Shown here: positions 23,042 to 57,611 of the stretch, piece after piece
How the letters are laid out: every line of letters starts with the position of its first letter
Position numbering within the stretch: the first letter of the stretch is position 1
From: an uncultured virus (IMG/VR IMGVR_UViG_3300010885_046520)
Taxonomy: Duplodnaviria; Heunggongvirae; Uroviricota; Caudoviricetes
Reading direction: 5' to 3' (one strand)
DNA: 64,000 bases
IMG/VR virus record: IMGVR_UViG_3300010885_046520
Span: 1-64,000 of that record
Notes under the pieces: generated by a model
What the model saw: the letters and a program-made list of their open reading frames with translations, nothing else
What the model was told of the DNA's origin: nothing
Database searches by the model: none
Program-made: the position numbers and the translations under genes

Positions 23042-23051
23042 TTTTTATTTC

Positions 23052-30296: not shown

Positions 30297-30317
30297 AAAT
30301 TATCCTTAAATTTATTC

Positions 30318-34658: not shown

Positions 34659-37600
34659 TTATACTTGGAGTACTCCTTCTGTTTTCATTGCTAGTTTGTT
34701 CATGGCTCCGTTAACTTGATCTAGGATCATTCTCTGAATAGGTTCTTGCATATTAGCAAATACTGATGCTCCATTAATAACAACTTCTACTCTGTGTGTA
34801 CCTTGTAGATTAACTTGTTCTGGTATTTTAATCTGTTCAAGTTGACCAATAAATCTATTGAAAGTGCTGGTAAACTGGCTTAATCCGTCTAATTGACCTC
34901 TGCTATTATTATTTACACCACCACCGACTGGAGTTGCCCCCATGCTTTGAATCATGTTTTCTAAAGCCATACCAAATTGGGTTAATACTTGATTACTTCC
35001 AGTTAATAAAGTTCCAAATATCGCTAATTGTTTATCAACATCTCCAGCATGTTGAGGATCAAAAGCTGCTTGAGCAGCCATATTTACTCTTTGGCTCATT
35101 TGGGGATTCATCTGTTGATTACCCTGAGTAAACATTGCCTGATTTTGTTGTTGGTTCTGTTGGTTTGTCTGATTCCCTTGAGGAGGAGCTTGTTGAATCT
35201 GTCTTGGTATTCCTCTATATTTATATTCTTCAGCTTTATTTATTTGTGCTTCTTTTACTCTCTCGCCCAATGCTTTTCTTTCAGCTTCTATACTATCTCT
35301 AGTCTGTTTTCTCTCTGCTTCTATTGCTGCTAGTCTTAGTTGATCTAATTGTCTTCTTTCATCTCTGTCTTGTGTATATTTTCGTTTTTTAGGAGTTTCT
35401 CCACCTGACTCTAAGTATACTACTCCACCACTAGAAAATCCTTGGGCTCCACTATTAATACTCTTTAACAGAGGTAGATTTTGCTGAGTGGCCTGACGAT
35501 TAACAACAAACTCTCCTGGGGTCAACATTGCTGGTACAGTGTCTGTGCCTCTTGGCTGATAAGGAATCAACATTCCATTATTAGCATAAACCACCCCACC
35601 TCTAGCCTTAGCTAATACATCAATATTACTAGGAGCTAAATTGTCTGAACCAATATATTTAATAGCTGATCCAGGTGGCATAGTTTCAAAAAATCCTTCT
35701 CTAAATTTTTGAAGCATCTCTGGATTTCTTTTTCCTATAAACTTCATAATTTGGGATAGAACTTCACCATCTCTTGTTACTGCATCTGTACTATCATATA
35801 TTGCTCGTCTGCTTGGTAGTCTAGTCTGCTGTTGCATTAGCCAACTATCTGCAAGACCTCCCCCTCCACTATTTGGACTAGCAAATGTTTGTGTTTGAAT
35901 ACCTCTTAAGGTTTTACCAGATGGATCTTGTAATTCTAGTTTCTTTAATAACGGGGAATATTTCATATCAGATAATACTGATTGTACTTGGTCAAAATTA
36001 TCATGTAACCAACGAGCCACATAAGATTTATTTAGCTCATAATCAAGATCAAATCTTGATGGGTCTAATGTTTCATCAAATTTAACAATCATGGGTTTAC
36101 CACGAGTATCTGCTCCTGTAAGTGTTCCTTGCATAATAGATCTGGCGTGTTTTTCAGCTGCTTCCCTACTAGTGTAGGTGTACAAGCCTTGACCTTGTCC
36201 GTACCCCTTTGCAATACTACTTTTACCACCTTCTTTTTGAAAACTTTTTAAAATAGAGTCTTCTAAGCCAGTATTACTAGCATGAAAAAGAGGTACAGTT
36301 TTAGAAGCTTTGGGCACATCTAATGGCGCACTAGATTTAGTAATAGGAGTTTTTGCTCCTCTGATACTTTGTCTTGAACCAGCGTTGGTTGTTGTAGCAC
36401 CTCCAGCCACAGCTGCTTCAGCAATATCAGTAAACATATTCCAAGCTGCACCAGCTCTTTCTAAAAAAGAAGCTCCTAATAATCCTGGTCCTGCTGGTGG
36501 ACCATAAGCACTAATTTCTCCTGTTGGAGTATGCCACTGTCTCCCACTATTATCTGTAGTTATTTTTGCTCGTTGTGTTTGTAATTTTGCCTGTTGATTA
36601 GCAAAGTCTAATTCTCCTTGGGTTGGAGTCATTTCTGGCATATAGTTCTGATTTTGTTGACCTAGTCTTGGATCCATTAATCGTGATCCTGGAACCAACA
36701 CACCATTTTGAGCATAAACTATGCCACCCTGAGATTTAAATTGACCAAATGCTTTTGCTTTAGAGGATGGTATTGGTGTGACAGGTGTTGGGCTTACGGG
36801 CTTAACTAAATCGCCATAGCCTTGTTGCTCAATTTCATATGAGGTTGTTGGTCTTCTAATATAGTCTTCACCAACACCAGACTCAACTCTAGTAGTATCT
36901 GTTATAAGACTTGGTTTCTTAGTATAACCATTTTCTCCAGCACTAATATCAGGATGTTTTTCTAATTTTTTCCATAATTTTTTAGCATCTGGAGTTTGAC
37001 TATCGTCAGGTATTACAGAACCACCTATTTTAGTGATATACTCTATAATAGCATGATATAAACTTTCTCCATATCCTTTTTTGGCTAATGATGTTTCTAT
37101 TTTAAATGTTTTTTGATTATCTATCGGTTTTGCAGAAACTCTTCCCCATCCTTGGTTAGCGGATCCAGTTTTTGGATCTTCATAAAAAGCAATTATCTCT
37201 CTTGCATCTTCTCCAAATACTTCTGAATTAAACTTGTCTGCATTTGTATTATCGTATGGACTTAGAATGCGAATTTTATTACTTGCTGGAGCTCCAGGAA
37301 CATCTGGAGTTTGTGGTTTATTTTGTTGAGCAAGGAGAGACTGTTGGAGCTTGATCATAACTTTTTGTTTAGCATCTTCTAATACTCCACGAGCTGTTTC
37401 TATTAAGAATCCACCTCTAGATTGTGCTAGTTTTGGATCAGTATCTGCTTGAGTTAAATTAAAATTAGTATGTCTAGACAAAAATTCAGCAGCAGCAGAC
37501 TCGCTTTCAGGTTGATAGAAATTACCAGTTCCTTCGACTTTAGCACCATATGTGCCTCCAACTTTTTGTTCAGCAGTACCAATTAAACCTCTATCTTTGT

Positions 37601-40600
37601 ATCGGGAGGCATTCATTTCATCTACTGGTCCAAGATTAACACGTTCAAATTTACCCATTTCTGAACGAAAATTACTTAATAGTACTTCTTTTAATGCTGT
37701 TTGTATATTTTCTCTACCAATAGTATCTCTAACCCCCATACGACCAACAGGCTGTTGCGCAACACCAGGGGCTTTTGCTCCTATTCCGGTAATGCCAATC
37801 TCTTGATCTCCAAACAATAAATTAGTACGATTAAATGTTTTTGGTAATTCACCAGATGTTCCAGTTAGTTGATATAATGTTTCAACTAAACTATCAAAAA
37901 CTGGTTGAGGATATTGAATAAGTCTCTGTATCGAATCAATATCAAAATCTTTTGTTTCAATAAATTTAGAAAAAGTTGGTTTAGCTTGAGGTTTTATAAA
38001 AGAGCTTGCACCTGTTATTTTATTAGTATCAACTGTTCTGTTGGAAGCAAAGTCATATTCTGATGAATTCTTAGCCGAAGTATATGCTGCATCTAATGTT
38101 TGTTGATGACTTCGTACTCTGTAGCTAGCAATTTCATCTGCTCTTTCTTCTAAGCTTCTATAGACAGGTAAACCCTGCTGGTTTCTTGATTTAGTATCTG
38201 GTCTAAGAGTACCCTCTTTTTCTTGTTTTTGATATTCTGCAAGTTGTTCTTTGGCCCATTGAGTTTTTAGTTTCTCTAATCTTTTGAATTCAATATCTCT
38301 AGCATCTTTTAGAGATTTTTGATATTCTGCCAATGTTCGACTTTGAGACATAGTTTTACTTGGATCAAATACTTGCGCCGTAGCTTGTGTGTCAGTTGAG
38401 GTAAGACCAGTTCCTTTTACTCCTCCAGCTTTTGGATTAGCAGCGCCGCGAGTGCCCAAATCTTCAAAACCCAAAGGAGCTCTTTCTGGTCGTGGGGCTG
38501 GTAATACTACTGGTTGTTTAAGCAGAGGGGTTTTTGCTCTTGGTACTCTTGTTTGTGGTGATGGTTTAGGTCCTGCTCCGGGTAAACCAAAAAGAAAACT
38601 TCCTACAATATCACTAAACATATTCATTCTCTCATGGAATGGAGCACCCAATGGCCCTGGTCCTGGTGGTGGTCCATAAGCACTTATAACACCTTCTGGA
38701 GCATTCCAATCAAATCCTTCAGCATCTCTATTTGCTACATGAGCTTGTTGTTGTCTACGTGCCCAATCTAATTCTCCTTGAGTTGGAGTCATTTCCGGCA
38801 TATCACTCTGATTTTGTTGGCCCAATCTTGGATCCATTATTCTTGGAACTAGCGTACCTTCATGAGCATAAATTATCCCACCCTTAGAATATGTGGTAGC
38901 ATTCGCATCTTCTGGATCAAAATCTTTAATCATCTTTTCAAGTCTATCACCCTTGACTCCCGGATAATTTTCTTTCATCCAAGTTCTAAAATTAACTGCT
39001 GGTGAACCACCAACAGCATCGGAATAATTACCATATTCATTCCAATACTGCCGGGAATTTCTCAACTGAGAGGATTCCTCAGGGTTACCCCAATTTTTTA
39101 AAATACTTGCTATTCTGGCTTCCTGTCTTGCTTTCTCTATTTGTTCTGGTGTTAGTTTAGCTTTATTACTCTGTTTGTCTTTTCTTTTGATACCTGCCAC
39201 TTGTTTTCTTCTTAACTTCTCATTTTCATAGTCTGCTTTTCTTTGTGCTCTTATATCTTCTAAACTAGGTTTATTTATTTGTCTACCATCTTGAGCATAA
39301 ACAACTCCACCATTAGAATAAAGTTCAGCCATTCTCATGGCCATCATAGTTTCATATTTATCCTTAAACATAGTATAAAAATCTAAATCTTCTGTTGCAA
39401 ATCCAGAATCTTCTGATCTATTTAATGAATTACGATTAGCTAAGAAATAGTGATATGCCTGTTCAACAGTTTTATATGGCACTGGTTTATTTGCAGACAC
39501 TAGTGCTTGTTGATGTCTTTTCATTATTTGTCTAACCGCTCCAAGCCTAGCATCAATTTCAAATGGCCTAGTTAAATATTCTGCTCTAGACATGCTTATA
39601 GGATTGTTTGGATACTTTGCATTATAAACTTGAACAGCCCAATCTAGATCTTCGTTTGTCATAAAAGTTTCAGATCGTTGCGATTCATCAGTACTTCCAA
39701 AAGCAGCATGTCTCATCTCGTGCATTAATAGTCCGTATGAGCCCTTTTTAGGATCAACATGAATTACTTCTTGTCCTTCTTTTCCCATTAAAGATCCACT
39801 AAATCTGGTGTCAAAAGGAGGCTGATAGTGAGTGCGTATTTTAGTATCTAATTTATGTCTTTCAACATAAGGAAAAGCTCTTCGATATTGTAAATGATCT
39901 AATTTCCCTAATGGTTGACTTTTAAGTTCTTCATCGTTGCTTATGGCAGCATTATATCCTTCTGCAACTGCTTTGTCTAATTCTGCTTTTGATCCGTAAG
40001 CTGGTGTTCTAGGACTAAATTTTGCTGGTAGTCCTTTGCCAAGAGCAACGTCTTCAAAAGATAAGTCTTGGGAAGGTATATGCTTGCCTTTTTCAGCATA
40101 AATTACACCTCCTTTGTCTTTATTAATAGCTTGTAATAATGGTAAATTTTGACTAGTTGCCTTAGCATTAACAACAAACTCACCAGGAGTTAGCATTGCT
40201 GGTACAGTATCCGTGCCTTTGGGCTGATAATTTATTAATTTACCAGCTGATGCATATACTATACCACCCTTACTAAATTGAGCACCTGCGCCACCCGGAT
40301 TAACCGGAAGATTACCTGCACCGGGAGGAGCACCGGGAAGAGGAGGACCATTTTGAGCACCAGCAGGAGGAGCAGGGGGTATCATAGGTGGAGCAGCTGC
40401 TAGAAGCAGCAATCTATCTAATTTAGCATCCATTCTGTTAGATAATGCAAAATGAGCAGTGGATAGTTCATAATGGGTTGAGTCTCTATCCATCATGTAT
40501 CCTAGACTATCAGAAGTCTGTGATAAATTTGTTTTATTCTGTTTCTTCAAATCATCAGTGTTTTTGAGTAATCTTTGCTCGGTAACATCTACCTTATCAA

Positions 40601-43600
40601 ATCTAGTTAAATTATTTCTATTGATAGTATCGGTATTATTAACTAGTTTGGGTAGTTGTTGATCTTTGGTATTTTTAGTAGTATCAGAAATCTTTGTTGA
40701 TAGTCCTAGATTATTTTTAGCATTATTAGCAATTTCTTGTTGTAGTCTTGAGTTTAATTCTTTATCACGAATTTGTGATGACTGTTGTGTAGAGTCTAAT
40801 GTTTTAGTTTCTCCCCCAACTGATCTATAAATTACTCCACCCTTGCTCTTATTAATAGCTTGTAATAAAGGAAGATGTTGACTGGTGGCTTTAGCATTAA
40901 CAACAAATTCGCCCGGAGTTAACATTGCGGGAACGGTATCAGTTCCTCGTGGTTGATAATCTACTAATGTTCCATCTGCCGCATAAATCATTCCACCATT
41001 ACTACTTCCTTGAGCTACTCTGAACGCAGGATTACCAGCAGCAACTCTAGGATATAGTAATCCAACAGTATTGTTAATATTGAAAGCTGATAATCTAGCA
41101 GCATTAGCAGCATCAGTATCTTCTGGATTAATATAACCCATTTTCGTTAATTGTTTGCTAATATTATTCTTTAGCATGGCCTGTTGACCAGGATTCATGC
41201 CTTGACCTCTTGCTGCCATTCTATCAATGCTACTAAAGTTTCTTAATAACTTAGCAAAAGTTTTTCCTTGAGCTTTCTCTAGTCTTTTTCTCTCAGCCAT
41301 AGTAGCCACATCCGCACCATAATCACCAGACTTATTATAGATACGAAATGCTACTTGCTCAATTTGATCTTGACTCATTCTTAATATGGCAATATCTCTA
41401 TCACTATATTTATAGTTACCACCAACCGTTTGCTGACTCATTGTTTGAATAAGTGCTTCAGCTTGTTCTGGTGTGAATGGACGGAAAAGATCTTTAGCAG
41501 CATCTGCTGATAAGCCGTACTTTGTTAAGAGTTTTTCGTCTAGTCTGGGACTTCCACTTAGATTAAACTTTCCTCTAAGTTTAGATAAGGCTTGTTCTCT
41601 CCAGCCCATAAAAGCTTCTGGACTACGGAATTTATCTGGAGCACCCATACCAACAGCTTTACCTACCGCTAATTCCAAGTTAAATCGTCTAGAATTAGCT
41701 CTATTAGATGCTAAAATTTGTGCTCTATTAGCTTCTCTTTCTTGTTTTTTCTCATAGTTTTTCCATAGTCTATCTTGTTCAGCTAGTGGGATATCAACAA
41801 AAGCTTTATTATTTAATGATACAATTTGTCTATTTTTATCTTCAAGTTGTTGTAATAGCTTTTCTTTATCTCTCTTCTGTTCCTTGCTCATATCCTTAGG
41901 GTCTTTATACTTATATCTATCTATTTCTGCTTCTATTTCTTGTTTTTCTTTATTTAATTTATCTGTCTGTTTATAAACATCAACTGTGTCTCCATCAAAA
42001 GCGACCTTTGCAGCCCCTGGTGGTAATGCTGGACGATCAACCCATCGATCAGCCTGACTTTCATTTGCTGCTCGTCTTCTGTTAATATTTTCCTGATTAT
42101 TTCTATTAATAGTTTGAAAACCTGATACAGCAGCATTTGCAACTGATGATACATAAGGAACTGCTGTCTGTACTGCTCTATTAGCTGTAGCTCTAACTTG
42201 TGTTGCTCTAGTTTGTCTTCTTTCTTCTTGTCTTTGTCTTTCAACCTTTTTAGCTTTTTCTGCTCTTTTTTGCTCTGCGGCTAGTTCTGATTTTCTTTCT
42301 TGCTCATCTAAATATTGTACATGAGCTTCTGTGGCGGCATCTAGGCGAGCACTACTAGCTCCTGTTCCTCTATTTTTATCTTGTTTAGTGTCCCAAAATA
42401 TGCCAGGAACAGTATCCATTGTATTAAAAGAATCATCAATAAGTCTTATTTGTTCATCATAAAAATTTTGGTTTGAACTAGTGCCCTGAGAATTTCCTCG
42501 GGCTGCTTGATCTTTTTTCTTTAATCTTAATAGTTCTGCTTTTCTTTCTACAGCGCTTCTTTGAAATGCATTTAAGTCAAAACCACCAAGATGATCATTG
42601 GGTCTTCTGGGTCTTCTGCTAGCTTGTAAGTTTCTATTTGTTCTTATTTCACTGGTAGTTGCATCATTAGCATCTGCTAAATAACCAGCTGTTTCTTGAA
42701 TATTCATAGCTAATGCAGCTGTAATTGGAGCGAATTGTGCTGGGACACCCATAGTAGCGTGTTCAACTGAAGTTAATCCTAATTGACTGAAATTACCCAA
42801 TTGTCTATCTAACATAGTTCCTTGTTCAACACCCGTAGCCCATCCTATCATAGAATGAGCTCCAACATCACCCATGGTCTCTCCCGTGCCTGTTAACATT
42901 CCTAGTCCAGTATTAACTAATCTATTTCTATTTGTGAGTCTAGGATCAGCCATTGCTCCACTAACAGCGCCAAAAATTGATCCAAAAAATCGACCAGCAA
43001 TAGGAGCGGCAGCTCTGGCAATACCTGGAGCTTGACTAGCTCCATAACTCAAAGCTGCTCCGGGATTTCTAATAACAGATCTAGCTCCTTGATAAGCACT
43101 GCCTAACATATTTCCAGTTCTATTTAGTAATGAAGCTGGTGGTTTTGGTTTTACCGGTTGTATTCCTAACCATCTTTCTAAACCATTTGGATTTACATTT
43201 CTGGGTCTTCTTATCTCTGGGATATCGTTATCACCTAAGTCTAGTCCTGCTAATTTGACTTCAGTTATTTGTTGTATGTAGGGTTTAAAAATTGGATCAT
43301 TAATACCTAATCTAGAAGCTCGCACAGCTGCATTCCATTCTCTCCTTACCCTAGCTCCAGTCATAGCTGGATCACCCTGTCTAGCTAATAAAAATTTAAA
43401 TAAAGGATCACGAGGACTAAGATTACTAGGTACTCTATATCTATTTCCTCTTGCTATGATATTTAATGCATCACCAGCATCATCACTGCCAGATATCATA
43501 TTAGCAACTAGCGGATCTATTACATTTGCTATCTGCACAGGGTTGGTTGATCCACCAGCTAAATAAACCACCCCACCCTTAGCATATTTACCAGAATTAA

Positions 43601-46600
43601 TACTCTTTAAAAGAGGCAAATTATTTTGTGTAGCTGATCTATTAACTACAAATTCACCAGGAGTTAACATGGCAGGAACAGTGTCAGTTCCTCTTGGCTC
43701 ATAATTAACTAAAGTTCCACTAGCAGCATAAACTGGACCACCTTGTGCTCTAGTCATAACATTGCCCGGTCTGGCTAATCCTAATCCTTCATTACGACCT
43801 TGAGCATTATTAAAAGCATTGGTCAAATTAGTTAAAGCTGTTATTAAAGCTGTATTAGCAGTATTGAGTATTTGAGCTTGTTTTTCTAATAGTGGGTTAA
43901 TAGCCTTTTGAGTAGCTTCGCCCAAAGCTGCCTGTTGTTGTTTATATAGATTCTCTAGTGCTTTAATTTGTGGATCTTCTTTTGGGGCAGCTCTCAGGTT
44001 GGCAACAATTTCTCTTAAGAAAGGATTATTTTGAACATTAAGACCTTGGTTTCTGGCTGTGTTCTCAATCAAATCAGCTCTTAGATTTCCGGCTCTTTGA
44101 GGATCAGTATTATCTAATCCAGAAACAGTAATAAGCTCATTAAATAAACCAAAAGTATTCTTGGCATCACTAGCAAAAGCTTCTTGAGCAGCACCGACCG
44201 CATCCATGTGGGTGCCGCCATCCTCAATAACTTTTTGGTAAGCTTGTTGAGCAGAGATGGACTGGTTGATGGTGGTGATTTGACCGTTTAATGTTCTATT
44301 AAGAAGATCATAGGTGGAATTGAGATTTTTTAATTCTGTGGGGGTGCTTGTTACTAATTTTTCTCCAAAAGAAGCTCCGGCCTGAGTTTTACTTTCTTTC
44401 TCTGATCTTAGCTGACTAATTTTACTAAGAGTGTCTTGCATATCTTGTTTGATAAGATCTGGTAGGGTTTCTAAACCTTTTTCAGTAGCGGCGATTTGTC
44501 TATTTAGATTAGCAAGAGCTTCTTTTTGCTTGTTGATAAGAGATATAACAGCAGGATCTGCTGCATTACCTGAATTTTCTAGTTTACTAATATTACCTTG
44601 AACAGCAGCCTGCTGACCCATCAACATTGTTCTTTGGTTGGTCAAATTAGCTGCTGTTAAAGAGCCGGGTTTAATACCAGCGTTTATTGCTGCTTCAGTA
44701 TATCTGCCTGATGCTCTTTCTTTAAGAGAAATTCTTCGTCCTTCTCCTAGAGCTTCTTTGAGTGATACAGTACTGTCTGAGAGATATCCTTGTAAACTAG
44801 CAAATTTACCAATAGCTTGAGTTTGAAGTTCAGCTGCTTTTTGTACAGCTTCTCCATATTGATTTAATCCTTTTTCTATAAATTCATACTGACCCAACAT
44901 TGTATTGAAGGATTTTTTCTGAGAGTCAATTAATTGTTTTAGTCCACCAGTGCTCTCTATTAAGGACTGAGGATCTAATACTCCGTCATTCTGTTTGATA
45001 TTATCTTTAACAGCGCCTTTTAATTGTTCACGAATAGCATCAGAGATTCTATTATCTCCAAAAGTATCTATAAGTTGTTGAGTTAATTCTCTGGTAATAT
45101 CATCTCCTAAAGTTTCACTACTACCATTACCGCTCTGTTGTGCTTTAACAGCAATTTTTGTAATAGTATCTTCAGCAGAAGACCCGAACTTGGATAATCC
45201 TTCAACAAATTTCTTATCTGTACCAAACATTCCACTAACTTGACTAATTGCTGTTTGACGTTCTTTTTGTGAATAAGCATTAGGATTCTTTAATACGTCT
45301 TTAGACTTAAATTCTGTTTTTAGCGAAGCTTGACCACTTGCTATCTCATCAATTCTTTGACTGGCTTTGTCTAATCCCATAGTGGCTGCTGCAATAGCCT
45401 GATCCATGTTTTCAAAGGTTTTAGATATACTAACTGATGCAAGATTTAAAGTTCTTGCAGATTGTTGTAGAGCTTGCACCCTGGATCTTTCTGCTACAGT
45501 AGCTTGTAGTGTTGCTGTTTCTTCTTTAAAGTAAACATCTATTAACTCTTTTTGTCTCTTTTCAACATCTGCTATAATTTGTGGATCTTGTCCTGGAGTT
45601 TTCTTAATATTCTCTAATTTTTTATTTTCCAGATTAAACTTTTCATTAGTTTGAGCAATATTTAATTTTGCTAAGTCTTTATCTCCACCAAAAGAGGATA
45701 AGGCTTCCTGAATATTTGATCCACCCTCAACCTTAGCTGTAATTGTCTTAAGAGCTATCTCTCCAGCAACTTTTTGGTTAGCAGTTTCTTCTTCAGCAAT
45801 TTGCTTATCTGTTGGTTTCGCAGCTTTATACATACCGAAAGAAGCAGCTTCTAAACCACGAGTTAAATAACTGGGCTGTCGTAATTCTGCTTGTTTTGCT
45901 GATATTTTTTCTTCTTCAGCAGCAATGCTTTTAAAATTTTGAATAATTGATGATGTAATAGCGGCATCTTTTGGATTTTTATTAAGTTTTTCTAATTGAG
46001 CTTCCGCATTTGTAGCACTACCTTCTATTTTCTTTTTACTAACATCTATATCAGCTTCTGCCACTGCTTTGCCAAAGCTATCTACAGCTAATACCGCACC
46101 AGCTACTGCTCCAGCAAGTGCTCCCCAAGGACCAAATTGTGCCCCAACAGATACGGCCCCACCAAATGCTGTGCCAGCAGCAGCAACTCCTCTACCATTG
46201 CTTCCACCAACCATTGAGCCTACCGCTTCTGCTGCCATAGGAGCAGCAAATGCTAGAGCTAAACCACCATTCATATATCTAGCTCTTCTATCTCTTTTAG
46301 CTTCATATTGTGCTCTTTGAGAGTCAGACATGTTACCAATTTCTTCATCTGATGGTCCCATTATTCGACTTCTAATTGAACCCAATCCTCTAGATGCTCC
46401 TTGAAACGCTTTGGAAAGTGTAGGAAAGCTTTGTGCTAATCTGCTCTGAGATTGAGTATTTGTTTGAACAGCTTTATACAAACCTCCCCACGCATCTGCC
46501 ACCTTTCTTTCTGCGGCGGCCTTGGCCATAGAAACACTAACGCTACTATCTGTTGCTCTAATTTGTCTAGTAAGAGATGCTACTTGTTTACGTTGAGCAT

Positions 46601-49600
46601 CTGCTACGGCCTTGGCGGCATTTTGATCTCCTAAATCAGCTGCTTGTCTAGTACCAAGACTCACTCCTCCGACTACTTGATCTTCTGCTGACCTATAAGC
46701 TGTATCGAAATCGACAGAAGGATTGGCTGTTGCTATCTGATTTACAATTTTAGCTAATAGATCATCTACTGCTTTTTCAGCCTGTGCTGATACCGCATCA
46801 AAACTCGCTACTGCTTCATATGTTGTGCCACCCCCAGCAAATCGTTGTATTCCACGAACAGCACCACCAGAACGATAGCCTAAAGCTTTAGTTGCAGCTT
46901 CACGAAGAATAAAGCTACCTACTGGTAAGTTTATCGGCCCTATACTATCACTAGTTCCTGTACCCGAACCTTTAAAAACACTAATTCCCCCAGAAGAAAA
47001 TGAACTCATTCCATTACGATCTGCTTGATTCATTCGGTTGAGTTTACCATATCCTATTGCCTTGGCTGTTTCTGGTGGAACATAAGCCTCACCATTAGAA
47101 ACCATAGCTTGAACATGTCCACCCGATGCATAACCTCTAGCTTTAAGATAATTACCAATTTGGTCTTTTAGTTCTGCTGGGCCATTAAGGGTAAGTTTAG
47201 CATCTGTTGGAATATTTTGAGGAAGATTAAAATATTTAGCAGCATCCTGAAGACCATCTGGGAAGTCGATACCATAATTGGTGGCGGCTTTATTTGCTAT
47301 TGGACCACCAAGCTGATGAATAATACTTTCAGCCATATATCCCTGAGCATTGGCCTCGCCCATCTTTTTACGATCAGAAGATTTAACTTTTTTATTCTTA
47401 TATAGATAGGTGTTAATACCTGCTGCTTTTGCTGCATTAATATTTCTCTCATCATCATCAATAAATGAACCAGACTTGTCCATCTCTTTAAGTTTAAGTT
47501 CGGCAATTTGTTCAGCAGTACGATCTGGACCACCAACACCTTTAATTCTATCTATTGGTATTGGGAGTCCATTTTTAGCTAACCATGTAGCAATCAAACC
47601 CATAGTTGCTTGTGGCCTAGCTGAAATCACATGTAAATTATCAAGTAGTTCTGGAGTTTTCTTAACTTGACTAACAAGAGCTTTACCTAATTTGCTAAGT
47701 GTAGCTTTTGCTAGAGCCCTCTCTACTTTTGTCTTATCAGAAAATTCACTAAATCTTGGTTTTCTAGGATCAGATAGAATTTTATCAGCACCAAAAGCTA
47801 ATGTCCTATCAAAATCAGAATATATGGGACCAACTTGTTTTAAAATATCTCTAATCATTACATTCTTGGTTAAGTTTTGACTTTCACCACTCATCGCTTG
47901 AGCCATCCTCTTGATGTCTCTTCCAGCAGCGTTTTTATCTAGGACACCACTAGTAATTCTAACTTTAACTGGATTATTTAGTCCTGGAATATCCATTCTG
48001 GGAGTTGTAGCAAAAGCTTTGCCCTTGAATCCAGCAGCACCAAACAATAGACCCTCTGTAGTTGCTTTTTGTATATCCAGATCATTTGCTGCTTTAATTC
48101 CAGAAGTTTTCTTTGTATAAGCTGCTAAGATTTGATCTTTGATGCTTTTTTCCTGTGGACTTAATGCATTTTTTTTCTTTAATATTTTGAGTATATCACC
48201 AGCATTTGCTCCACTAGCTTGCATTGCTCCTTGTAGAGTAAGAACTTTTAATATTTCGCTAGAAGTAGCTGTTGTTCCTGCTGTTGGAGTTACCAAACCA
48301 GCATTAGCAAACTTACGAATAAAACCTCCGGAAGCTCTATTATTTTTCCCTTGATTTTTTGCGTATAAATCTCTAATTTCATTCATTACCAAATCTTTAT
48401 TAGGCATCTCATAAACATTAATATTACCGATGTCCTTAGACTCTGGAGAAGAAAGAGTAAATGGCCTAGTTAAATTTCTAACCACTCTTGCTCTTAATAA
48501 CTTATCTAAATAATCTGTTTTAGACACCATACCAGAAGGACGAAATTTTACTTCTCCTACTGATTTTCCATCTGCACTAATAAGATCTACGGGATAACTA
48601 TTTCTACGAGGAATATTTTCAATTTCTCCAGTTGGTATATATTGTTTTCCTACTCGTTCTTTTATAGTTCTAGAAAGTAATCTCTCATATGCTTCAGACC
48701 ATTTGGGGCTCTCATCTGCTGTTCCAAGCTGACTAATTCTTCGTGCTCCTTCTTTACCAGCTAAAAAGTCTTTTGGTGATTTATCACTTCCTCTTCTTCC
48801 TAAAAGATTAGAGTAGCTTTGCATTTGTGTTGGAGTAGCTTTATTTTTTCCTAATGAAAATCTCTGATTTGTTGGAGAAATAGGTAGACCTTTTCTCATG
48901 TCATTATAAATTTCTCTTGCAATACTCTTAACGTTCAATCCTAACATCCACGGCTCTATCTGTTTAATAAATCCTGAAGCACTATCTTCATTAACGTTCA
49001 TATACCTAGCTATTTTAGGATTTTGAGAAATTAATGAAACAGCTTGAGGTAGTTTTTGGATAGATACTGGTCCTACTTTTCCTCCTCCAGCATGTCTATT
49101 AATACGATGAAGATTTCCTACTCCAATACTACGAACAGCACTTTTTCTAAGAACAAACTCTCCCGGCGTTAACATGGCCGGAACAGTATCTCCATCTCCA
49201 GAACCTGGAACATGACCACCAGCAGCAAAAGCTCTGATTTGTCCACCCTGATTATTTCTGGTGGGTCTAATACCACCAATAAATCCTCTACCGAACTGAC
49301 CAAGAGCAGACAAACCTCTCATTGCAAATATAGCACCAAGAGCTGGTAATGCTCCCTTGGCAGCATCTGTTAATCGAATTAAATTACTAGTTAAATCTAA
49401 AGATAATTTAACGAAAGACTGAAATCCAGAACTTTGTCCAATGGATCTTACTAAGCCTACAAACTCATTTCTTACTTTTGCCATTTGAACAGCTAAAGAT
49501 TGTTGTGCGGTGGCAGCATCAATTGCTAAAGAGTCTTGTCCACTTTGTGCAACCTTTAATGCTGCTTGAGCAGTTGCGAACTGTTGAATTAATGGAATCA

Positions 49601-50810
49601 CCTTACCAATCTGACGAAAACCACCAAGTTCTTCTACAATTCTGGAGAACTTTAAATCTCGGGGATCTAATTGAGATAGTCCTTCACTTAATCTTCTAAC
49701 AGCTTCGTATGGTCCAACGAATTTACCTTGAAGGTCTGTTAGTGTTACACCATATTCTTTAAGGGCATCGATTGTGTCTCCTCTTTGAATTCTGGTAAAA
49801 ATTGTTCTTAAACCAGTAGCAATAGTTTCAGCACTTTCACGAGTTGTAGCTCGAACGCTAGTAAACACAGCCATAAATTCATTTAGAGCTTGAGTACCTT
49901 CACTAACACCCTTACTAGCTGTAGCAAACACACCACCGGTACGCTGAATAGCAGTAATAATATCACCGGCTTCAACAGCAAACTTAGCAGCTACCGCATT
50001 AACTGAACCCAATGCACTATCTAATTCACCAGCACTAATACCAAACTGTCTCATTAATGCGATACTACCTTCTACGGTACTATTCAAGTTATCGAATGAT
50101 GGAGCTAATGCACTAAGAGCTAAAGCTTTTAATGCCTTCTCTGTATCTCTAGCACTTAAACCAGCCTGAGCTAATGTGCTAGATACTTTAATTAATTCGT
50201 TAGATGACACACCAAACTTGGTTGATAATTCAGTAATTTCGCCAACCAATCCACCAAGATTCTTTACGGAAGTATCAGTAACCTGAGATACTCTGACTAA
50301 TTCTTGATTAAAAGCAATAAAGTCGGTTGTTGCAGATGTCAGGGCGTTGGATACTTTATAGATGACAGCTGTTACTGTGCTAATAGCAGCAAATCTACGA
50401 GCAGCCAATGCTGATTGGCGACCAAATTCCATAAAAGCTGAAGTTGTATTATGAACCGCAGCAGAAGCCGCAGCGTTTTGTTGAACAACATTTCTTGTAG
50501 CAGCATTAATCTGTTGTAAGTTTGCCGGTAGATTAGCAGCACTATTATTAACTTGTTGTATAGCTGTTCCAAGATTTCTCAAAGATAAAGCTGTAGCATT
50601 TGCTGAGGCATTGGTGGCCTGTAAGGTATTAGTAAAATTTCTAAAAGTTTGATTAAGAGTAGTAATATTACGAGTTACATTAGGATCAACACGAACATTA
50701 ACATCAGCATTAATAGTTCCTAGTTGTCGCCTAATATCAGCAACAACAGTCCTAATGTTAGATGGTCCTCGTAAATTTAACTCTGCTGTAAGATTAAAAC
50801 CTCTAGCCAT
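34659..50810 (-). CDS. giant tape measure protein (5383 aa) with multiple enzyme-like cargo domains
   Basis: N-terminal TMP core (FNQELVRVSQVT, TLAQAGL, AAKFAVEAGDI, RESAETIATGLRTIFTRI), Ala/Gly hydrophobic segments and coiled coils; position after tail tube and chaperones; SD GAGG upstream. Confidence 0.9.
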   Translation of the reverse strand: MARGFNLTAELNLRGPSNIRTVVADIRRQLGTINADVNVRVDPNVTRNITTLNQTFRNFTNTLQATNASANATALSLRNLGTAIQQVNNSAANLPANLQQINAATRNVVQQNAAASAAVHNTTSAFMEFGRQSALAARRFAAISTVTAVIYKVSNALTSATTDFIAFNQELVRVSQVTDTSVKNLGGLVGEITELSTKFGVSSNELIKVSSTLAQAGLSARDTEKALKALALSALAPSFDNLNSTVEGSIALMRQFGISAGELDSALGSVNAVAAKFAVEAGDIITAIQRTGGVFATASKGVSEGTQALNEFMAVFTSVRATTRESAETIATGLRTIFTRIQRGDTIDALKEYGVTLTDLQGKFVGPYEAVRRLSEGLSQLDPRDLKFSRIVEELGGFRQIGKVIPLIQQFATAQAALKVAQSGQDSLAIDAATAQQSLAVQMAKVRNEFVGLVRSIGQSSGFQSFVKLSLDLTSNLIRLTDAAKGALPALGAIFAMRGLSALGQFGRGFIGGIRPTRNNQGGQIRAFAAGGHVPGSGDGDTVPAMLTPGEFVLRKSAVRSIGVGNLHRINRHAGGGKVGPVSIQKLPQAVSLISQNPKIARYMNVNEDSASGFIKQIEPWMLGLNVKSIAREIYNDMRKGLPISPTNQRFSLGKNKATPTQMQSYSNLLGRRGSDKSPKDFLAGKEGARRISQLGTADESPKWSEAYERLLSRTIKERVGKQYIPTGEIENIPRRNSYPVDLISADGKSVGEVKFRPSGMVSKTDYLDKLLRARVVRNLTRPFTLSSPESKDIGNINVYEMPNKDLVMNEIRDLYAKNQGKNNRASGGFIRKFANAGLVTPTAGTTATSSEILKVLTLQGAMQASGANAGDILKILKKKNALSPQEKSIKDQILAAYTKKTSGIKAANDLDIQKATTEGLLFGAAGFKGKAFATTPRMDIPGLNNPVKVRITSGVLDKNAAGRDIKRMAQAMSGESQNLTKNVMIRDILKQVGPIYSDFDRTLAFGADKILSDPRKPRFSEFSDKTKVERALAKATLSKLGKALVSQVKKTPELLDNLHVISARPQATMGLIATWLAKNGLPIPIDRIKGVGGPDRTAEQIAELKLKEMDKSGSFIDDDERNINAAKAAGINTYLYKNKKVKSSDRKKMGEANAQGYMAESIIHQLGGPIANKAATNYGIDFPDGLQDAAKYFNLPQNIPTDAKLTLNGPAELKDQIGNYLKARGYASGGHVQAMVSNGEAYVPPETAKAIGYGKLNRMNQADRNGMSSFSSGGISVFKGSGTGTSDSIGPINLPVGSFILREAATKALGYRSGGAVRGIQRFAGGGTTYEAVASFDAVSAQAEKAVDDLLAKIVNQIATANPSVDFDTAYRSAEDQVVGGVSLGTRQAADLGDQNAAKAVADAQRKQVASLTRQIRATDSSVSVSMAKAAAERKVADAWGGLYKAVQTNTQSQSRLAQSFPTLSKAFQGASRGLGSIRSRIMGPSDEEIGNMSDSQRAQYEAKRDRRARYMNGGLALAFAAPMAAEAVGSMVGGSNGRGVAAAGTAFGGAVSVGAQFGPWGALAGAVAGAVLAVDSFGKAVAEADIDVSKKKIEGSATNAEAQLEKLNKNPKDAAITSSIIQNFKSIAAEEEKISAKQAELRQPSYLTRGLEAASFGMYKAAKPTDKQIAEEETANQKVAGEIALKTITAKVEGGSNIQEALSSFGGDKDLAKLNIAQTNEKFNLENKKLENIKKTPGQDPQIIADVEKRQKELIDVYFKEETATLQATVAERSRVQALQQSARTLNLASVSISKTFENMDQAIAAATMGLDKASQRIDEIASGQASLKTEFKSKDVLKNPNAYSQKERQTAISQVSGMFGTDKKFVEGLSKFGSSAEDTITKIAVKAQQSGNGSSETLGDDITRELTQQLIDTFGDNRISDAIREQLKGAVKDNIKQNDGVLDPQSLIESTGGLKQLIDSQKKSFNTMLGQYEFIEKGLNQYGEAVQKAAELQTQAIGKFASLQGYLSDSTVSLKEALGEGRRISLKERASGRYTEAAINAGIKPGSLTAANLTNQRTMLMGQQAAVQGNISKLENSGNAADPAVISLINKQKEALANLNRQIAATEKGLETLPDLIKQDMQDTLSKISQLRSEKESKTQAGASFGEKLVTSTPTELKNLNSTYDLLNRTLNGQITTINQSISAQQAYQKVIEDGGTHMDAVGAAQEAFASDAKNTFGLFNELITVSGLDNTDPQRAGNLRADLIENTARNQGLNVQNNPFLREIVANLRAAPKEDPQIKALENLYKQQQAALGEATQKAINPLLEKQAQILNTANTALITALTNLTNAFNNAQGRNEGLGLARPGNVMTRAQGGPVYAASGTLVNYEPRGTDTVPAMLTPGEFVVNRSATQNNLPLLKSINSGKYAKGGVVYLAGGSTNPVQIANVIDPLVANMISGSDDAGDALNIIARGNRYRVPSNLSPRDPLFKFLLARQGDPAMTGARVRREWNAAVRASRLGINDPIFKPYIQQITEVKLAGLDLGDNDIPEIRRPRNVNPNGLERWLGIQPVKPKPPASLLNRTGNMLGSAYQGARSVIRNPGAALSYGASQAPGIARAAAPIAGRFFGSIFGAVSGAMADPRLTNRNRLVNTGLGMLTGTGETMGDVGAHSMIGWATGVEQGTMLDRQLGNFSQLGLTSVEHATMGVPAQFAPITAALAMNIQETAGYLADANDATTSEIRTNRNLQASRRPRRPNDHLGGFDLNAFQRSAVERKAELLRLKKKDQAARGNSQGTSSNQNFYDEQIRLIDDSFNTMDTVPGIFWDTKQDKNRGTGASSARLDAATEAHVQYLDEQERKSELAAEQKRAEKAKKVERQRQEERRQTRATQVRATANRAVQTAVPYVSSVANAAVSGFQTINRNNQENINRRRAANESQADRWVDRPALPPGAAKVAFDGDTVDVYKQTDKLNKEKQEIEAEIDRYKYKDPKDMSKEQKRDKEKLLQQLEDKNRQIVSLNNKAFVDIPLAEQDRLWKNYEKKQEREANRAQILASNRANSRRFNLELAVGKAVGMGAPDKFRSPEAFMGWREQALSKLRGKFNLSGSPRLDEKLLTKYGLSADAAKDLFRPFTPEQAEALIQTMSQQTVGGNYKYSDRDIAILRMSQDQIEQVAFRIYNKSGDYGADVATMAERKRLEKAQGKTFAKLLRNFSSIDRMAARGQGMNPGQQAMLKNNISKQLTKMGYINPEDTDAANAARLSAFNINNTVGLLYPRVAAGNPAFRVAQGSSNGGMIYAADGTLVDYQPRGTDTVPAMLTPGEFVVNAKATSQHLPLLQAINKSKGGVIYRSVGGETKTLDSTQQSSQIRDKELNSRLQQEIANNAKNNLGLSTKISDTTKNTKDQQLPKLVNNTDTINRNNLTRFDKVDVTEQRLLKNTDDLKKQNKTNLSQTSDSLGYMMDRDSTHYELSTAHFALSNRMDAKLDRLLLLAAAPPMIPPAPPAGAQNGPPLPGAPPGAGNLPVNPGGAGAQFSKGGIVYASAGKLINYQPKGTDTVPAMLTPGEFVVNAKATSQNLPLLQAINKDKGGVIYAEKGKHIPSQDLSFEDVALGKGLPAKFSPRTPAYGSKAELDKAVAEGYNAAISNDEELKSQPLGKLDHLQYRRAFPYVERHKLDTKIRTHYQPPFDTRFSGSLMGKEGQEVIHVDPKKGSYGLLMHEMRHAAFGSTDESQRSETFMTNEDLDWAVQVYNAKYPNNPISMSRAEYLTRPFEIDARLGAVRQIMKRHQQALVSANKPVPYKTVEQAYHYFLANRNSLNRSEDSGFATEDLDFYTMFKDKYETMMAMRMAELYSNGGVVYAQDGRQINKPSLEDIRAQRKADYENEKLRRKQVAGIKRKDKQSNKAKLTPEQIEKARQEARIASILKNWGNPEESSQLRNSRQYWNEYGNYSDAVGGSPAVNFRTWMKENYPGVKGDRLEKMIKDFDPEDANATTYSKGGIIYAHEGTLVPRIMDPRLGQQNQSDMPEMTPTQGELDWARRQQQAHVANRDAEGFDWNAPEGVISAYGPPPGPGPLGAPFHERMNMFSDIVGSFLFGLPGAGPKPSPQTRVPRAKTPLLKQPVVLPAPRPERAPLGFEDLGTRGAANPKAGGVKGTGLTSTDTQATAQVFDPSKTMSQSRTLAEYQKSLKDARDIEFKRLEKLKTQWAKEQLAEYQKQEKEGTLRPDTKSRNQQGLPVYRSLEERADEIASYRVRSHQQTLDAAYTSAKNSSEYDFASNRTVDTNKITGASSFIKPQAKPTFSKFIETKDFDIDSIQRLIQYPQPVFDSLVETLYQLTGTSGELPKTFNRTNLLFGDQEIGITGIGAKAPGVAQQPVGRMGVRDTIGRENIQTALKEVLLSNFRSEMGKFERVNLGPVDEMNASRYKDRGLIGTAEQKVGGTYGAKVEGTGNFYQPESESAAAEFLSRHTNFNLTQADTDPKLAQSRGGFLIETARGVLEDAKQKVMIKLQQSLLAQQNKPQTPDVPGAPASNKIRILSPYDNTNADKFNSEVFGEDAREIIAFYEDPKTGSANQGWGRVSAKPIDNQKTFKIETSLAKKGYGESLYHAIIEYITKIGGSVIPDDSQTPDAKKLWKKLEKHPDISAGENGYTKKPSLITDTTRVESGVGEDYIRRPTTSYEIEQQGYGDLVKPVSPTPVTPIPSSKAKAFGQFKSQGGIVYAQNGVLVPGSRLMDPRLGQQNQNYMPEMTPTQGELDFANQQAKLQTQRAKITTDNSGRQWHTPTGEISAYGPPAGPGLLGASFLERAGAAWNMFTDIAEAAVAGGATTTNAGSRQSIRGAKTPITKSSAPLDVPKASKTVPLFHASNTGLEDSILKSFQKEGGKSSIAKGYGQGQGLYTYTSREAAEKHARSIMQGTLTGADTRGKPMIVKFDETLDPSRFDLDYELNKSYVARWLHDNFDQVQSVLSDMKYSPLLKKLELQDPSGKTLRGIQTQTFASPNSGGGGLADSWLMQQQTRLPSRRAIYDSTDAVTRDGEVLSQIMKFIGKRNPEMLQKFREGFFETMPPGSAIKYIGSDNLAPSNIDVLAKARGGVVYANNGMLIPYQPRGTDTVPAMLTPGEFVVNRQATQQNLPLLKSINSGAQGFSSGGVVYLESGGETPKKRKYTQDRDERRQLDQLRLAAIEAERKQTRDSIEAERKALGERVKEAQINKAEEYKYRGIPRQIQQAPPQGNQTNQQNQQQNQAMFTQGNQQMNPQMSQRVNMAAQAAFDPQHAGDVDKQLAIFGTLLTGSNQVLTQFGMALENMIQSMGATPVGGGVNNNSRGQLDGLSQFTSTFNRFIGQLEQIKIPEQVNLQGTHRVEVVINGASVFANMQEPIQRMILDQVNGAMNKLAMKTEGVLQV
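35500..49205 (-). repeat. dispersed protein-level repeat G(T/D)(D/G)DTVPAMLTPGEFV[VL] within the TMP, five full copies
   Basis: Copies near 49150-49205, 43641-43703, 40897-40960, 40168-40230 and 35500-35560; degenerate copies near 47075-47125 and 46900-46960. Confidence 0.9.
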
Positions 50811-50890: not shown

Positions 50891-51772
50891 TCAGACAGTT
50901 TTATCTGATGGAGTTGGTTCTGGGGCTGGTGTAGTTGTAGGAGTTGTTTCATCTTTTTTAGTTTCTTCTTTATTGCTTTCTAATACAACGGGCTTTCCTT
51001 CTTCGTCCAAAAATGGCTGTGCTTCAACTACATAGTCACCTTCTAGATCTACCCTATTGCCGAACTTATCAACAAAGTTACCCTGCTCATCAATGAAACG
51101 ATTATTCTCATCGATCAACCTACCTTCAGCATCAACCAAACGACCCTGCTTATCAACAAGCCTTAACTTTTCATCAACAAATTTATACTTCTGTAAAAAC
51201 TTGTTTTCTGGTAAAGTCTTCTCAAAATTATTATCCAACCCATAAATTATATTAGCCAATTTCTGAGCACCGAGCAAAGCTACTGGGTCATCTGCTTTGT
51301 TCAAATACTCTTCCAAACTCTTAAAATAAGGCTCATTAGTATCTTTATACACCACACAAGCGGATACTAAATAATTAAACCTAGCATTATCAGCTTGACC
51401 TTCAGCACTATGATTATCTAAAGATGTACGAACACTAATTAGGTCTCTTATTTCGGCCCTAATTTCTTTCATCTTTAAAGCAAGGTCTTTAGCATCCTTT
51501 AGACCGAACCCACCCTTAGCTAATCTCTTTTCTCCATCTAATAGTTCTTGTTGCAGATCGGAGAACTTTCTCTGCTTTTCCTTGTTCCATAAGCCCTGTT
51601 CTTCTAAGAGATCATCCATCTTTGCTCTAACCACAGATTTACTCTTTATAGCGTCTGTAAAGGCTTGGTTATAAGTTTTCTGGGCTTCTCTTTGATCATT
51701 TAAAGAGGGTGAACGGACCACGAAATGCTTCTCTACATTATCAACAACCACACTAAAGTTATCAGTTTTCAT
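50891..51772 (-). CDS. putative tail assembly chaperone
   Basis: Directly upstream of the TMP; coiled-coil core; C-terminal 7-aa D-x-x-G repeats. Confidence 0.5.
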   Translation of the reverse strand: MKTDNFSVVVDNVEKHFVVRSPSLNDQREAQKTYNQAFTDAIKSKSVVRAKMDDLLEEQGLWNKEKQRKFSDLQQELLDGEKRLAKGGFGLKDAKDLALKMKEIRAEIRDLISVRTSLDNHSAEGQADNARFNYLVSACVVYKDTNEPYFKSLEEYLNKADDPVALLGAQKLANIIYGLDNNFEKTLPENKFLQKYKFVDEKLRLVDKQGRLVDAEGRLIDENNRFIDEQGNFVDKFGNRVDLEGDYVVEAQPFLDEEGKPVVLESNKEETKKDETTPTTTPAPEPTPSDKTV

Positions 51773-56666: not shown

Positions 56667-57611
56667 TTACCAACTACTATGAGGAGAACGTCTCCAAGTA
56701 TTACTGCCCACACAAATATATAAATAGGATGAATCCCATACTATATCACCAGGATTTCCAGAAGAGGAGGATGAGGCTATCATTCTGTAGGGTATATTAG
56801 TAACTGATCTAGAAAAATCTACAATATCAGATAAATAATGTTTATGTCCGCTAATAGAATAATTACCAACAGGTTGCGGAATATAGTTTAATGCTCCACT
56901 AATATCTGTAAAAGATAAAGTAACAGTACCTGACCTAGCATTAAATGATGTTACTCCACTATTTCCTAATGAATCAATAGTGATAGTATTAGAAGAATTA
57001 TTATAGTATACATTAGTATATCCACTACCAACAATATTCAGTCTTTCATTGTTAGAATAATAAATAACTGGCGCAGTTCCGTCTCCTATGGTTAAATTAT
57101 GAATATGATTACTATAAGAATATGAACCAGTAGGTTGTTTAGCATCCAACAAACCTTGAAGGCCATCTACTTGATCAACTATATGATGATGACCATATAA
57201 GCTATAATCTCCAGAAACCTGTGGTACATAACCGAGCCTGCTAATGATATTTGGAGCAGTTAAGAAACCGGAACCAGATTTGGTATCTATCACTACGCTA
57301 CGAGCAGCATTGTTATATGATATAGTTGTATCACCTGAACCTACAACATTGAGATATTGTCCACTGGATAAATTAATAGCTACTCGTGGGTCTGCTCCAT
57401 CTGCTATGGATAGATAAATTTCTGGAAAATTGATAGTTACAGGAGGAATGTCTACATATGATAGACCAGACCAAGCAGTAACTCCGTCTCCAACTTTTAA
57501 GTATCTGGATTCGGTCTCATATCCTGGTTCTCCTAAAGCTAAGATGGGATTAACAGAAATCCATTCTCCACTAGGGGCTCTTCGTAGTCTAATTCTTCGA
57601 TAATCACTCAT
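56667..57611 (-). CDS. fibre protein with Mtd/hyaluronidase-type N-terminal domain
   Basis: RIRLRR...W...NPILALGEPGYETE...LKVGDGVTAWSGL; HxH motifs; C-terminal GDIVWDSSYLYICV..NTWRR. Confidence 0.8.
   Translation of the reverse strand: MSDYRRIRLRRAPSGEWISVNPILALGEPGYETESRYLKVGDGVTAWSGLSYVDIPPVTINFPEIYLSIADGADPRVAINLSSGQYLNVVGSGDTTISYNNAARSVVIDTKSGSGFLTAPNIISRLGYVPQVSGDYSLYGHHHIVDQVDGLQGLLDAKQPTGSYSYSNHIHNLTIGDGTAPVIYYSNNERLNIVGSGYTNVYYNNSSNTITIDSLGNSGVTSFNARSGTVTLSFTDISGALNYIPQPVGNYSISGHKHYLSDIVDFSRSVTNIPYRMIASSSSSGNPGDIVWDSSYLYICVGSNTWRRSPHSSW

Follow-up and report, generated by a model that had tools for sequence, protein, structure and literature searches.

The closest precedent for the gene analysed here is gp96 of Thermus phage P23-45, a 5,002-aa tape measure protein (TMP) fused to a virion RNA polymerase (RNAP) that is thought to act at entry, according to the available text of PMC10770324. 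Our subject is a 5,383-residue TMP encoded in a 64,000-nucleotide stretch of DNA from an uncultured freshwater phage (hereafter the window), which represents the first 64 kb of the 76,041-base IMG/VR viral contig IMGVR_UViG_3300010885_046520, rated ~50% complete. As far as that text describes it, gp96 resembles this protein in being a TMP of ~5,000 residues with an enzyme held to act in the cytoplasm before phage gene expression, and it is a direct precedent for an entry-acting enzyme on a TMP of this size. Compared by description, gp96 carries one enzyme, at its N-terminus, whereas the 5,383-aa TMP bears several unrelated cassettes on both sides of its hydrophobic stretches, each set off by repeated joints, and their arrangement changes from one relative to another.

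A comparable domain repertoire has been described for the polyvalent proteins of phages and conjugative elements, very large proteins with strings of ADP-ribosyltransferase (ART), GNAT, nuclease and metallopeptidase domains, for which entry alongside the DNA and cleavage by a built-in zincin peptidase have been proposed (Iyer et al. 2017, PMC5512222); the term "tape measure" has no occurrence in the available text of that paper. The TMP likewise combines several unrelated effector-type domains in one giant phage protein (HAD, ART and GNAT folds, and an HEXXH motif), and its ART-fold domain co-occurs with ART-PolyVal and DUF5824 in one homologue, P0100. Unlike in the polyvalent proteins, the carrier here is a tail ruler, and no PolyVal or LPD family of Pfam matches it at E ≤ 0.1. 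In the Sle1-type effectors of actinobacterial contractile injection systems (CISs), a TMP-related carrier is also joined to an exchangeable functional domain, going by the available text of PMC13277306, but these are CIS effectors rather than phage rulers and, compared by description, have a single functional domain. The TMP of phage lambda, gpH, is cut in a glycine-rich region near its C-terminus, close to a motif resembling the joints described below, to give gpH* and a ~14-kDa gpHC, and gpH* forms the trans-envelope channel (PMC12617516, available text). Our literature searches found the single-enzyme TMP of P23-45 and the polyvalent-protein concept, and no description of cassette-built tape measures; an enzyme on a giant TMP and the polyvalent repertoire are known already, and the multi-cassette, joint-built ruler appears to be new.

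We suggest, with a probability of roughly 0.6, that the TMP backbone has been expanded by enzyme cassettes placed between gpH-type joints, and that these cassettes are delivered at infection. The presence of several swappable modules between joints probably means that enzymes made beforehand enter the host through the tail together with the DNA. The gene, its identity as a TMP, three enzyme folds, the conservation of their residues and the shuffling of cassettes are established here. The open reading frame (ORF), its TMP core and the three cassettes with predicted enzyme folds are located as follows:

34659..50810, minus strand: whole tape measure ORF, 5383 aa in a stop-free frame, the exact protein being present on 3 contigs
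49431..50360, minus strand: TMP core, aa 151-460, recognised by PF10145 and TIGR01760
47385..47846, minus strand: HAD phosphatase cassette, aa 989-1142, from motifs, fold model, Foldseek and VIA
36891..37286, minus strand: small GNAT-fold cassette, aa 4509-4640, from fold model, Foldseek, VIA-wide and the G-x-G loop
35601..36311, minus strand: ART-fold cassette, aa 4834-5070 (H4843, Y4877, E4925), from fold and H/Y/E conservation

By sequence family the protein is a genuine siphophage-type TP901/PF10145 tape measure. PF10145 covers aa 192-384 (E 8.6e-25; 88.2 bits, cut-off 33.2) and TIGR01760 covers aa 151-460 (E 8e-23; 81 bits, cut-off 28.8), both thus scoring above their cut-offs and bearing out the original prediction, made from the letters of the window, of a 5383-aa ORF with an N-terminal TMP core. 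Several PHROG tape-measure families match the ORF too, and 20 of the 22 other giant TMPs have the core. By composition, helical or low-complexity sequence makes up more than half of the 5,383-aa protein. In addition to the TP901-type core and long helical stretches, the backbone comprises two hydrophobic stretches rich in glycine, and it closes with a conserved C-terminal part:

46071..46274, minus strand: first glycine/alanine-rich hydrophobic stretch, aa 1513-1580, by composition
42696..43043, minus strand: second glycine-rich hydrophobic stretch, aa 2590-2705, by composition
34662..35378, minus strand: conserved C-terminal end of the TMP, aa 5145-5383, shared with 8 of 22 other TMPs and with fragments P0002-P0004

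The 5,383-aa ORF is genuine. The exact protein is recorded on 3 contigs, and a 108-kb record (G001) contains a frame identical to the 5,383-codon ORF. Logan contigs from an independent assembler (run X1) tile the whole ORF at an even depth of 31-34 with 0 differences; X1 may be the source sample and hence not independent. Two further freshwater samples (X2, X3) yielded small, 100%-identical contigs from both halves of the ORF, and the parts of the window left uncovered in runs X2-X4 carry no evidential weight. The DNA copies of the internal repeats are just 60-87% identical and there are no long exact repeats, making repeat collapse unlikely. Joints of low depth, with sides of <30 nt and occurring in other runs, were read as relatives sharing joints.

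The HAD cassette is supported as a HAD phosphatase fold with conserved catalytic residues, which according to its model is closest to the T4 Pnkp 3'-phosphatase. The motifs DFDxT, (S/T)ARP, K and DDxxxN are invariant in 15/15 aligned relatives (D999, D1001, T1003, (S/T)ARP 1063-1066, K1106 and D1118-D1119). An AlphaFold2 (AF2) model shows a Rossmann-like HAD fold with a predicted local distance difference test score (pLDDT) of 82-94, the two PD-(D/E)XK regions of the same model (PD1 and PD2, see below) scoring low. Every match listed by Foldseek is a HAD phosphatase (E from 4e-4), and VIA-align ranked the T4 Pnkp 3'-phosphatase best (Z 12.9, root-mean-square deviation 2.7, 125/142 residues), followed by Pnkp1 (11.9), T4 PNK (11.7), AphA (10.6) and generic HADs (9-10). 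HAD motifs I-IV are common to the cassette and the T4 enzyme (PDB 5uj0, 1ltq), but the identity is just 14-15%, the margin over AphA and generic HADs amounts to only 2-3 Z, and Pfam finds no kinase domain beside the cassette. Among the 15 HAD homologues, phrog_415 ("polynucleotide kinase") is matched by two, as is a deoxyribonucleotidase family by two; for the copy in the window there is no such match. Family hidden Markov models (HMMs) stay below cut-off (HAD-SF-IA-v3, 15.7 bits vs 29.4; HAD_2, E 0.86 in 1/15), a profile of the HAD alignment (A2) run against the PDB returned only weak HAD rows (E 0.7-1.7), and Pfam found nothing useful in the members of that alignment. By analogy, a Pnkp-like phosphatase would point to nucleic-acid 3' ends as its target.

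An exhaustive search with aa 3871-5070 (threshold E ≤ 1e-3) gave 129 matches, with the best stretch on the ART-fold domain in 124. These 124 include 16 proteins of 2,400-6,418 aa, 7 of the 8 scanned carrying PF10145, and many of the remaining ones are solo proteins of ~220-300 aa (~240 aa). In an alignment of 44 sequences (A3), H4843 is retained in 43/44 and Y4877 in 40/44 (F in the other 4), while D4923, E4925, K5051 and Y5052 are present in 44/44; the 18 TMP-borne copies have H in 18/18, Y in 16/18 and E in 18/18. The model reaches a pLDDT of 87-97 in the core and places the conserved H on predicted strand 1 and the Y on predicted strand 2; P0027, being misaligned, was left out of the alignment behind this joint GNAT/ART model. 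Foldseek on the two-domain model listed GNAT rows only, and the ART fold surfaced in VIA-wide alone, a search of 48,161 representative chains that is independent of Foldseek and has a caution line at Z 8. All eight VIA-wide rows on model residues 324-571, the ART domain, are ART-fold enzymes (Z 6.4-7.8): Tpt1 (7.8), PARP13 and PARP16 (7.4) and the Rhs toxin TreX (7.2), and lower down SAIP (6.5) and DarT1, PltA and PARP10 (6.4). As these Z scores are moderate, the ART case rests on the agreement between the fold, the identity of all rows and the H-Y-E pattern, which together lend moderate support to an ADP-ribosyltransferase fold of the H-Y-E clade and a putative enzyme.

The cassette shares with H-Y-E ARTs and Tpt1/KptA (PARP13/16/10, DarT1, Tpt1) the fold, the H on strand 1, the Y on strand 2 and the invariant E; unlike them, it has an additional strand, KY(V)G, which is invariant, as well as an insert that varies. 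T4 Alt, which the original prediction cites as an injected ART, is an R-S-E-type ART and belongs to another clade. The A3 profile retrieved nothing significant from the PDB, with Tpt1 at E 1.3-1.9, the weak match at E 1.3 lying on the LYHxT..G(L/I)xP motif of the cassette. PF01885 found nothing in the contig, and neither this search nor the one with PF00583 (see below) produced candidates, so that there was no gain in sensitivity over hmmscan. PHROGs matched 2/44 members weakly, and a cluster look-up of 10 homologues returned metagenomic proteins throughout, with no informative names over the domain. In four multi-domain homologues outside TMPs (P0064, P0071, P0082, P0100), the domain stands beside DUF5824, DTW, GGACT or ART-PolyVal, DUF5824 being a recurring fusion partner in 3 proteins. 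Judging from these comparisons, the ART cassette appears to represent no described sequence family; it occurs in many giant TMPs as well as in solo proteins.

The GNAT cassette is supported, at a moderate level and from its model, as a GNAT fold and a putative acetyltransferase. The model (pLDDT 63-89) has the order beta-alpha-beta3-alpha-beta-alpha-beta2; the PDB matches listed by Foldseek are all GNATs (E 1.2e-3 to 9e-3), and 42/50 VIA-wide rows are of GNAT or acyl-CoA N-acyltransferase type (Z 6.4-7.3). The acetyl-CoA loop motif of GNATs is Q/R-x-x-G-x-G/A; the G-x-G loop is kept in 6/6 copies (KKGYGES / GGWGP / HGWGP) and the leading Q/R is not conserved. The cassette is common only to P0002, P0027, P0127 and the partial TMP G002. 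P0127, a 549-aa metagenomic protein, has two tandem small GNAT-like modules outside any TMP.

The cassettes are separated by repeated joints, which give substance to the repeated linker module that the original prediction had noted. Joint A is a ~70-aa module in five copies (aa 522, 2355, 3270, 3513 and 5069) with the consensus GGxVYAxxGxLVxYxPRGTDTVPAMLTPGEFVVNxxATxxNLPLLxxIN, joint B is a second module of ~90 aa in two copies (aa 3977 and 4695), and 13 borders carry a short motif of GG(V/I)(V/I)Y type:

49035..49247, minus strand: joint A1, aa 522-592, of all copies the one closest to residues 735-790 of lambda gpH
46821..47138, minus strand: two degenerate joint copies, aa 1225-1330, 65-78% identical in most loci found
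43536..43748, minus strand: joint A2, aa 2355-2425, from repeat comparison
40791..41003, minus strand: joint A3, aa 3270-3340, where homology to the TMP of G011 stops
40062..40274, minus strand: joint A4, aa 3513-3583, from repeat comparison
38616..38882, minus strand: joint B1, aa 3977-4065, from repeat comparison
36441..36728, minus strand: joint B2, aa 4695-4790, containing an 88-nt stretch of double depth
35394..35606, minus strand: joint A5, aa 5069-5139, from repeat comparison

An HMM of joint A finds 1-9 copies in each of 23/23 giant TMPs. Residues 735-790 of lambda gpH align with aa 526-580 of joint A1 through the pattern FAxGG..P..GEFV..IGVGNL..GGxVG, and the joint A HMM run against gpH alone gives a weak match (0.3 bits, E 0.036). 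The alignment suggests that the joints are homologous to the C-proximal motif of gpH. The lambda protein has a single copy of the motif and is without an enzyme domain; cutting is established in lambda, whereas the joints described here are putative cut sites only.

Sequence comparison indicates that the cassettes are swapped, reordered or absent between relatives at joints, and the exchange of cargo at the same junctions that the original prediction had proposed to look for was seen in G002, G003 and G011. Homology to the TMP of G003 is limited to aa 1-1270, 1507-2420 and 4827-5137. The partial TMP of G002 has matches to aa 3985-4707 (GNAT block) and aa 4826-5133 (ART block), but there the two follow each other the other way round. 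The TMP of G011 is 92% identical over its first 572 residues and homologous up to aa 3333 and then again at the C-terminal end; it is without the whole block 3335-5140 (HEXXH/GNAT/ART), and its frame of 3,491 codons is 1,892 shorter. The ends of the homology blocks fall at or near joints. Across other TMPs, the position of the ART-fold cassette ranges from residue ~230 to ~4,830; the 22 comparison TMPs were chosen by having this domain, so that its frequency of 17/22 is biased. The 7,795-codon TMP of G013 has a further cassette, at aa ~1589-1672 (L049), which matches ADPrib_exo_Tox at E 8.4e-7, above the Pfam cut-off; its motifs include STS and ExE, with S at the expected position of the first-strand Arg. 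EF-hand motifs occur elsewhere in the G013 TMP and also in that of G006.

Uninterrupted TMP frames in ten relatives measure 3,491, 3,607, 5,136, 5,392, 5,486, 5,734, 5,943, 6,900, 7,577 and 7,795 codons, and those of G003 and G004 5,799 codons. At ~0.15 nm of tail per TMP residue, 5,383 residues would correspond to ~800 nm. Such a tail is in doubt, given the frame of only 3,491 codons in G011 with its 92%-identical N-terminus; the spread of frames together with G011 suggests either that tails vary greatly or that cassettes add nothing to tail length.

The remaining segments with catalytic-type motifs, and a small module conserved next to one of them, are the following:

48321..48743, minus strand: PD1 nuclease-like cassette, aa 690-830 (E..PVD..GEVK), from its motif and Atlas leads
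47091..47378, minus strand: PD2 module, aa 1145-1240 (D1182..D1203-x-K1205), from motif conservation
39306..40043, minus strand: HEXXH cassette, aa 3590-3835 (HEMRH 3697-3701; E3751), from motif conservation in P0131
38886..39128, minus strand: small W/Y-rich module, aa 3895-3975 (WMKENYPGVKGDRL), conserved in P0131

By its motif only, the HEXXH segment may be a zincin-like module. P0131 keeps the HExRH and ExDxRxGA motif with a conserved E 51-53 aa downstream, only two copies being known; no relative of the cassette smaller than 2,960 aa was found, viral contigs gave an identical copy only, and Pfam gave no HMM match. Atlas neighbours (LPD23, 0.85; a "peptidase family" cluster, 0.78) are leads only. 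An HExxH motif occurs in 14/23 giant TMPs, against ~0.01 expected in each, in several recurring sequence types. The PD1 pattern E..PVD..GE(V/A)K is present in 4/6 covering rows of its alignment (A1), with an AF2 pLDDT of 30-45, and the named Atlas neighbours, again a lead only, are all restriction-endonuclease-fold families (0.80-0.86); a globular nuclease domain here is unproven. In PD2, the D, the (D/E)xK and a T are invariant in 15/15, with no fold match (pLDDT 26-58), and the module occurs in 19/22 other TMPs, HAD-less ones included; PD2 is probably a backbone element rather than cargo. Single-sequence phmmer searches of four segments against the PDB returned nothing.

Thus, of the six enzyme segments in the original prediction, all six motif sites are present, and the HAD, GNAT and ART segments stood up, with folds and conserved residues; for HEXXH there is motif conservation only, and both PD-(D/E)XK segments are unproven (pLDDT 26-58). 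As to the checks it had put forward, catalytic residues are conserved in homologues for HAD (15/15) and ART (44 and 18 copies), and structure prediction with Foldseek recovered the HAD and GNAT folds, with ART found by VIA-wide. Its notion of a cargo-carrying polyprotein fits the folds and the cassette exchange; injection, processing, enzyme activity and a role in takeover or anti-defence are further steps that we infer.

Under the proposed mechanism, the TMP would be the first component out of the tail at infection, and the two glycine-rich hydrophobic stretches would help to build an envelope channel, like lambda gpH*. The cassettes would be stored unfolded or extended in the tube and fold after entry; this stored state is assumed because the cassettes cannot fit folded in the tube. 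Having reached the cytoplasm, with its NAD+, acetyl-CoA and nucleic-acid ends, they would act before any phage gene expression. ART and GNAT folds need NAD+ and acetyl-CoA, both of which are cytoplasmic, and these two cassettes would therefore have to act there. The joints would be recombination points and perhaps cut sites, and the HEXXH module, or else some other protease, might do the cutting there. An extended form of this mechanism is tentative, and on balance we doubt it: the joints would be both recombination and cut sites; the ruler, threaded into the cytoplasm upon ejection and cut by itself (through the HEXXH zincin) or by a host protease, would release 3-6 copies each of free enzymes, including a Pnkp-like 3'-phosphatase and a new family of H-Y-E ART acting on nucleic-acid ends or defence factors; these would form a pre-expression counter-defence kit that differs between phages with near-identical N-termini; and ruler length would be uncoupled from tail length.

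Several observations weigh against delivery of enzyme cassettes by the TMP. Beyond the TMP core, a Pfam scan gave nothing at E ≤ 0.1 and no enzyme family, and no NCBIfam or Pfam enzyme model reached its cut-off anywhere in the 5,383-aa protein. Pfam placed no family over the ART domain in 52 ART-cassette homologues (of 54 scanned) and found no GNAT family match in the protein or its homologues, and PF00583 found nothing in the contig. The best Foldseek E for the GNAT/ART model is only 1.2e-3, the Z scores of both domains (6.4-7.8) are middling, below the caution line of 8, and the PD1 and PD2 models are of low confidence (pLDDT 26-58). A single distant HEXXH homologue was found, within the 6,542-aa TMP P0131 (E 3.2e-4), and 9/23 giant TMPs are without HExxH, which implies that self-processing is not general. 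Folded domains of 25-30 kDa, in 3-6 copies, should be too big for the tube lumen. The 88-nt stretch of double depth lies between the GNAT and ART cassettes. Moreover, the packaging state, delivery, cutting, activity and targets of the cassettes are inferred.

Three other explanations were weighed against delivery at infection. The cassettes could be real enzymes that act late in the producing cell, or at the envelope or periplasm at entry, with the TMP fusion serving co-expression or localisation only. The TMP domains with known enzymatic functions target the cell wall (PMC12617516, available text), and cytoplasmic delivery is itself only proposed here; yet Pfam, PHROG and NCBIfam scans of the protein found no muralytic family, the cofactors of ART and GNAT are generally known to be cytoplasmic, the enzyme that the HAD cassette matches best removes phosphate from nucleic-acid ends, and the TMP-fused RNAP of P23-45 is held to act at entry (PMC10770324, available text). 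We consider late or envelope action unlikely. A similarly low likelihood is assigned to the inserts being mainly length or spacer material, decayed captured genes without catalysis in a protein that just sets a ~800 nm tail. That the inserts are unrecognised by Pfam models, that, by composition, over half of the residues lie in helical or low-complexity sequence and that the ~5,000-aa TMP of P23-45 goes with an extremely long tail (PMC10770324, available text) would all suit spacer material. Against it, catalytic-type residues show little or no variation in sets of 15, 44 and 18 copies, the ART-fold domain is also maintained in solo proteins of ~240 aa, and G011, with its 92%-identical N-terminus, has a TMP 1,892 codons shorter.

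Finally, assembly could have joined co-occurring related phages at a shared joint, making a chimera of the whole ORF or of the arrangement of its final cassettes. Within joint B2, window positions 36572-36659 correspond in run X1 to an 88-nt contig of depth 71.7, flanked by contigs of depth 31.1 and 32.8; the surrounding positions 36411-36729 match G005, a relative that appears to co-occur in the sample, at 87%, and X1 is possibly the source sample, so not independent. On the other hand, the depth is even on both sides and the exact protein is present on 3 contigs, small 100%-identical contigs from both sides occur in X2 and X3, G002 independently has ART and GNAT cassettes in one TMP, in another order, and ten relatives have uninterrupted frames of 3,491-7,795 codons. 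A chimera is therefore highly improbable, although a cross-over at this one point is conceivable, and delivery of cassettes on an expanded TMP backbone is retained as the preferred reading.

The genomic surroundings are those of a phage, the window containing a split DNA polymerase, glycosyltransferases, an HNH endonuclease and tail-fibre-like proteins. A megablast search of the ORF, and tblastn searches with the ART and HAD cassettes, matched no cultured phage in a collection that may omit the window's own record. The ORFs adjoining the TMP gene, 30318..34646 and 50891..51772, are tightly spaced, which fits the earlier remark that no immunity-like small genes are adjacent. These immediate neighbours are without a Pfam or PHROG family match, and tail-fibre-like genes follow further on, on the same strand. 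Directly downstream of the TMP gene (window 15056-34646, minus strand) lie four large ORFs of 1442, 548, 1856 and 2661 aa, which have no Pfam or PHROG match at all and are presumably tail-tip and fibre proteins. Just upstream (50891-51772, minus strand), a 293-aa ORF is coiled-coil-like and has, at its C-terminus, a series of short repeats of the form (G/N)R(L/F)(V/I)D; from its sequence and with no family match, it may be a tail assembly chaperone. Farther away, the DNA polymerase (phrog_405; window 838-5233, plus strand) is split into ORFs 838-2712 and 3602-5233, with a 233-aa exonuclease-subunit-like ORF (2908-3609) between them, and a 314-aa protein at 56667-57611 (minus strand) contains Mtd_N, the N-terminal domain of the major tropism determinant (E 3.7e-11).

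Should the cassettes be delivered, the tail would provide a second route, besides head-packaged proteins, by which changeable ready-made enzymes enter before phage expression, and recombination at standard joints could reassemble this cargo. The ART-fold family, with its 124 matches, and the Pnkp-like phosphatase are testable candidates for early-acting enzymes. The rule that tape measure length equals tail length is also called into question by frames of 3,491-7,795 codons and by a G011 TMP that is without ~1,800 residues.

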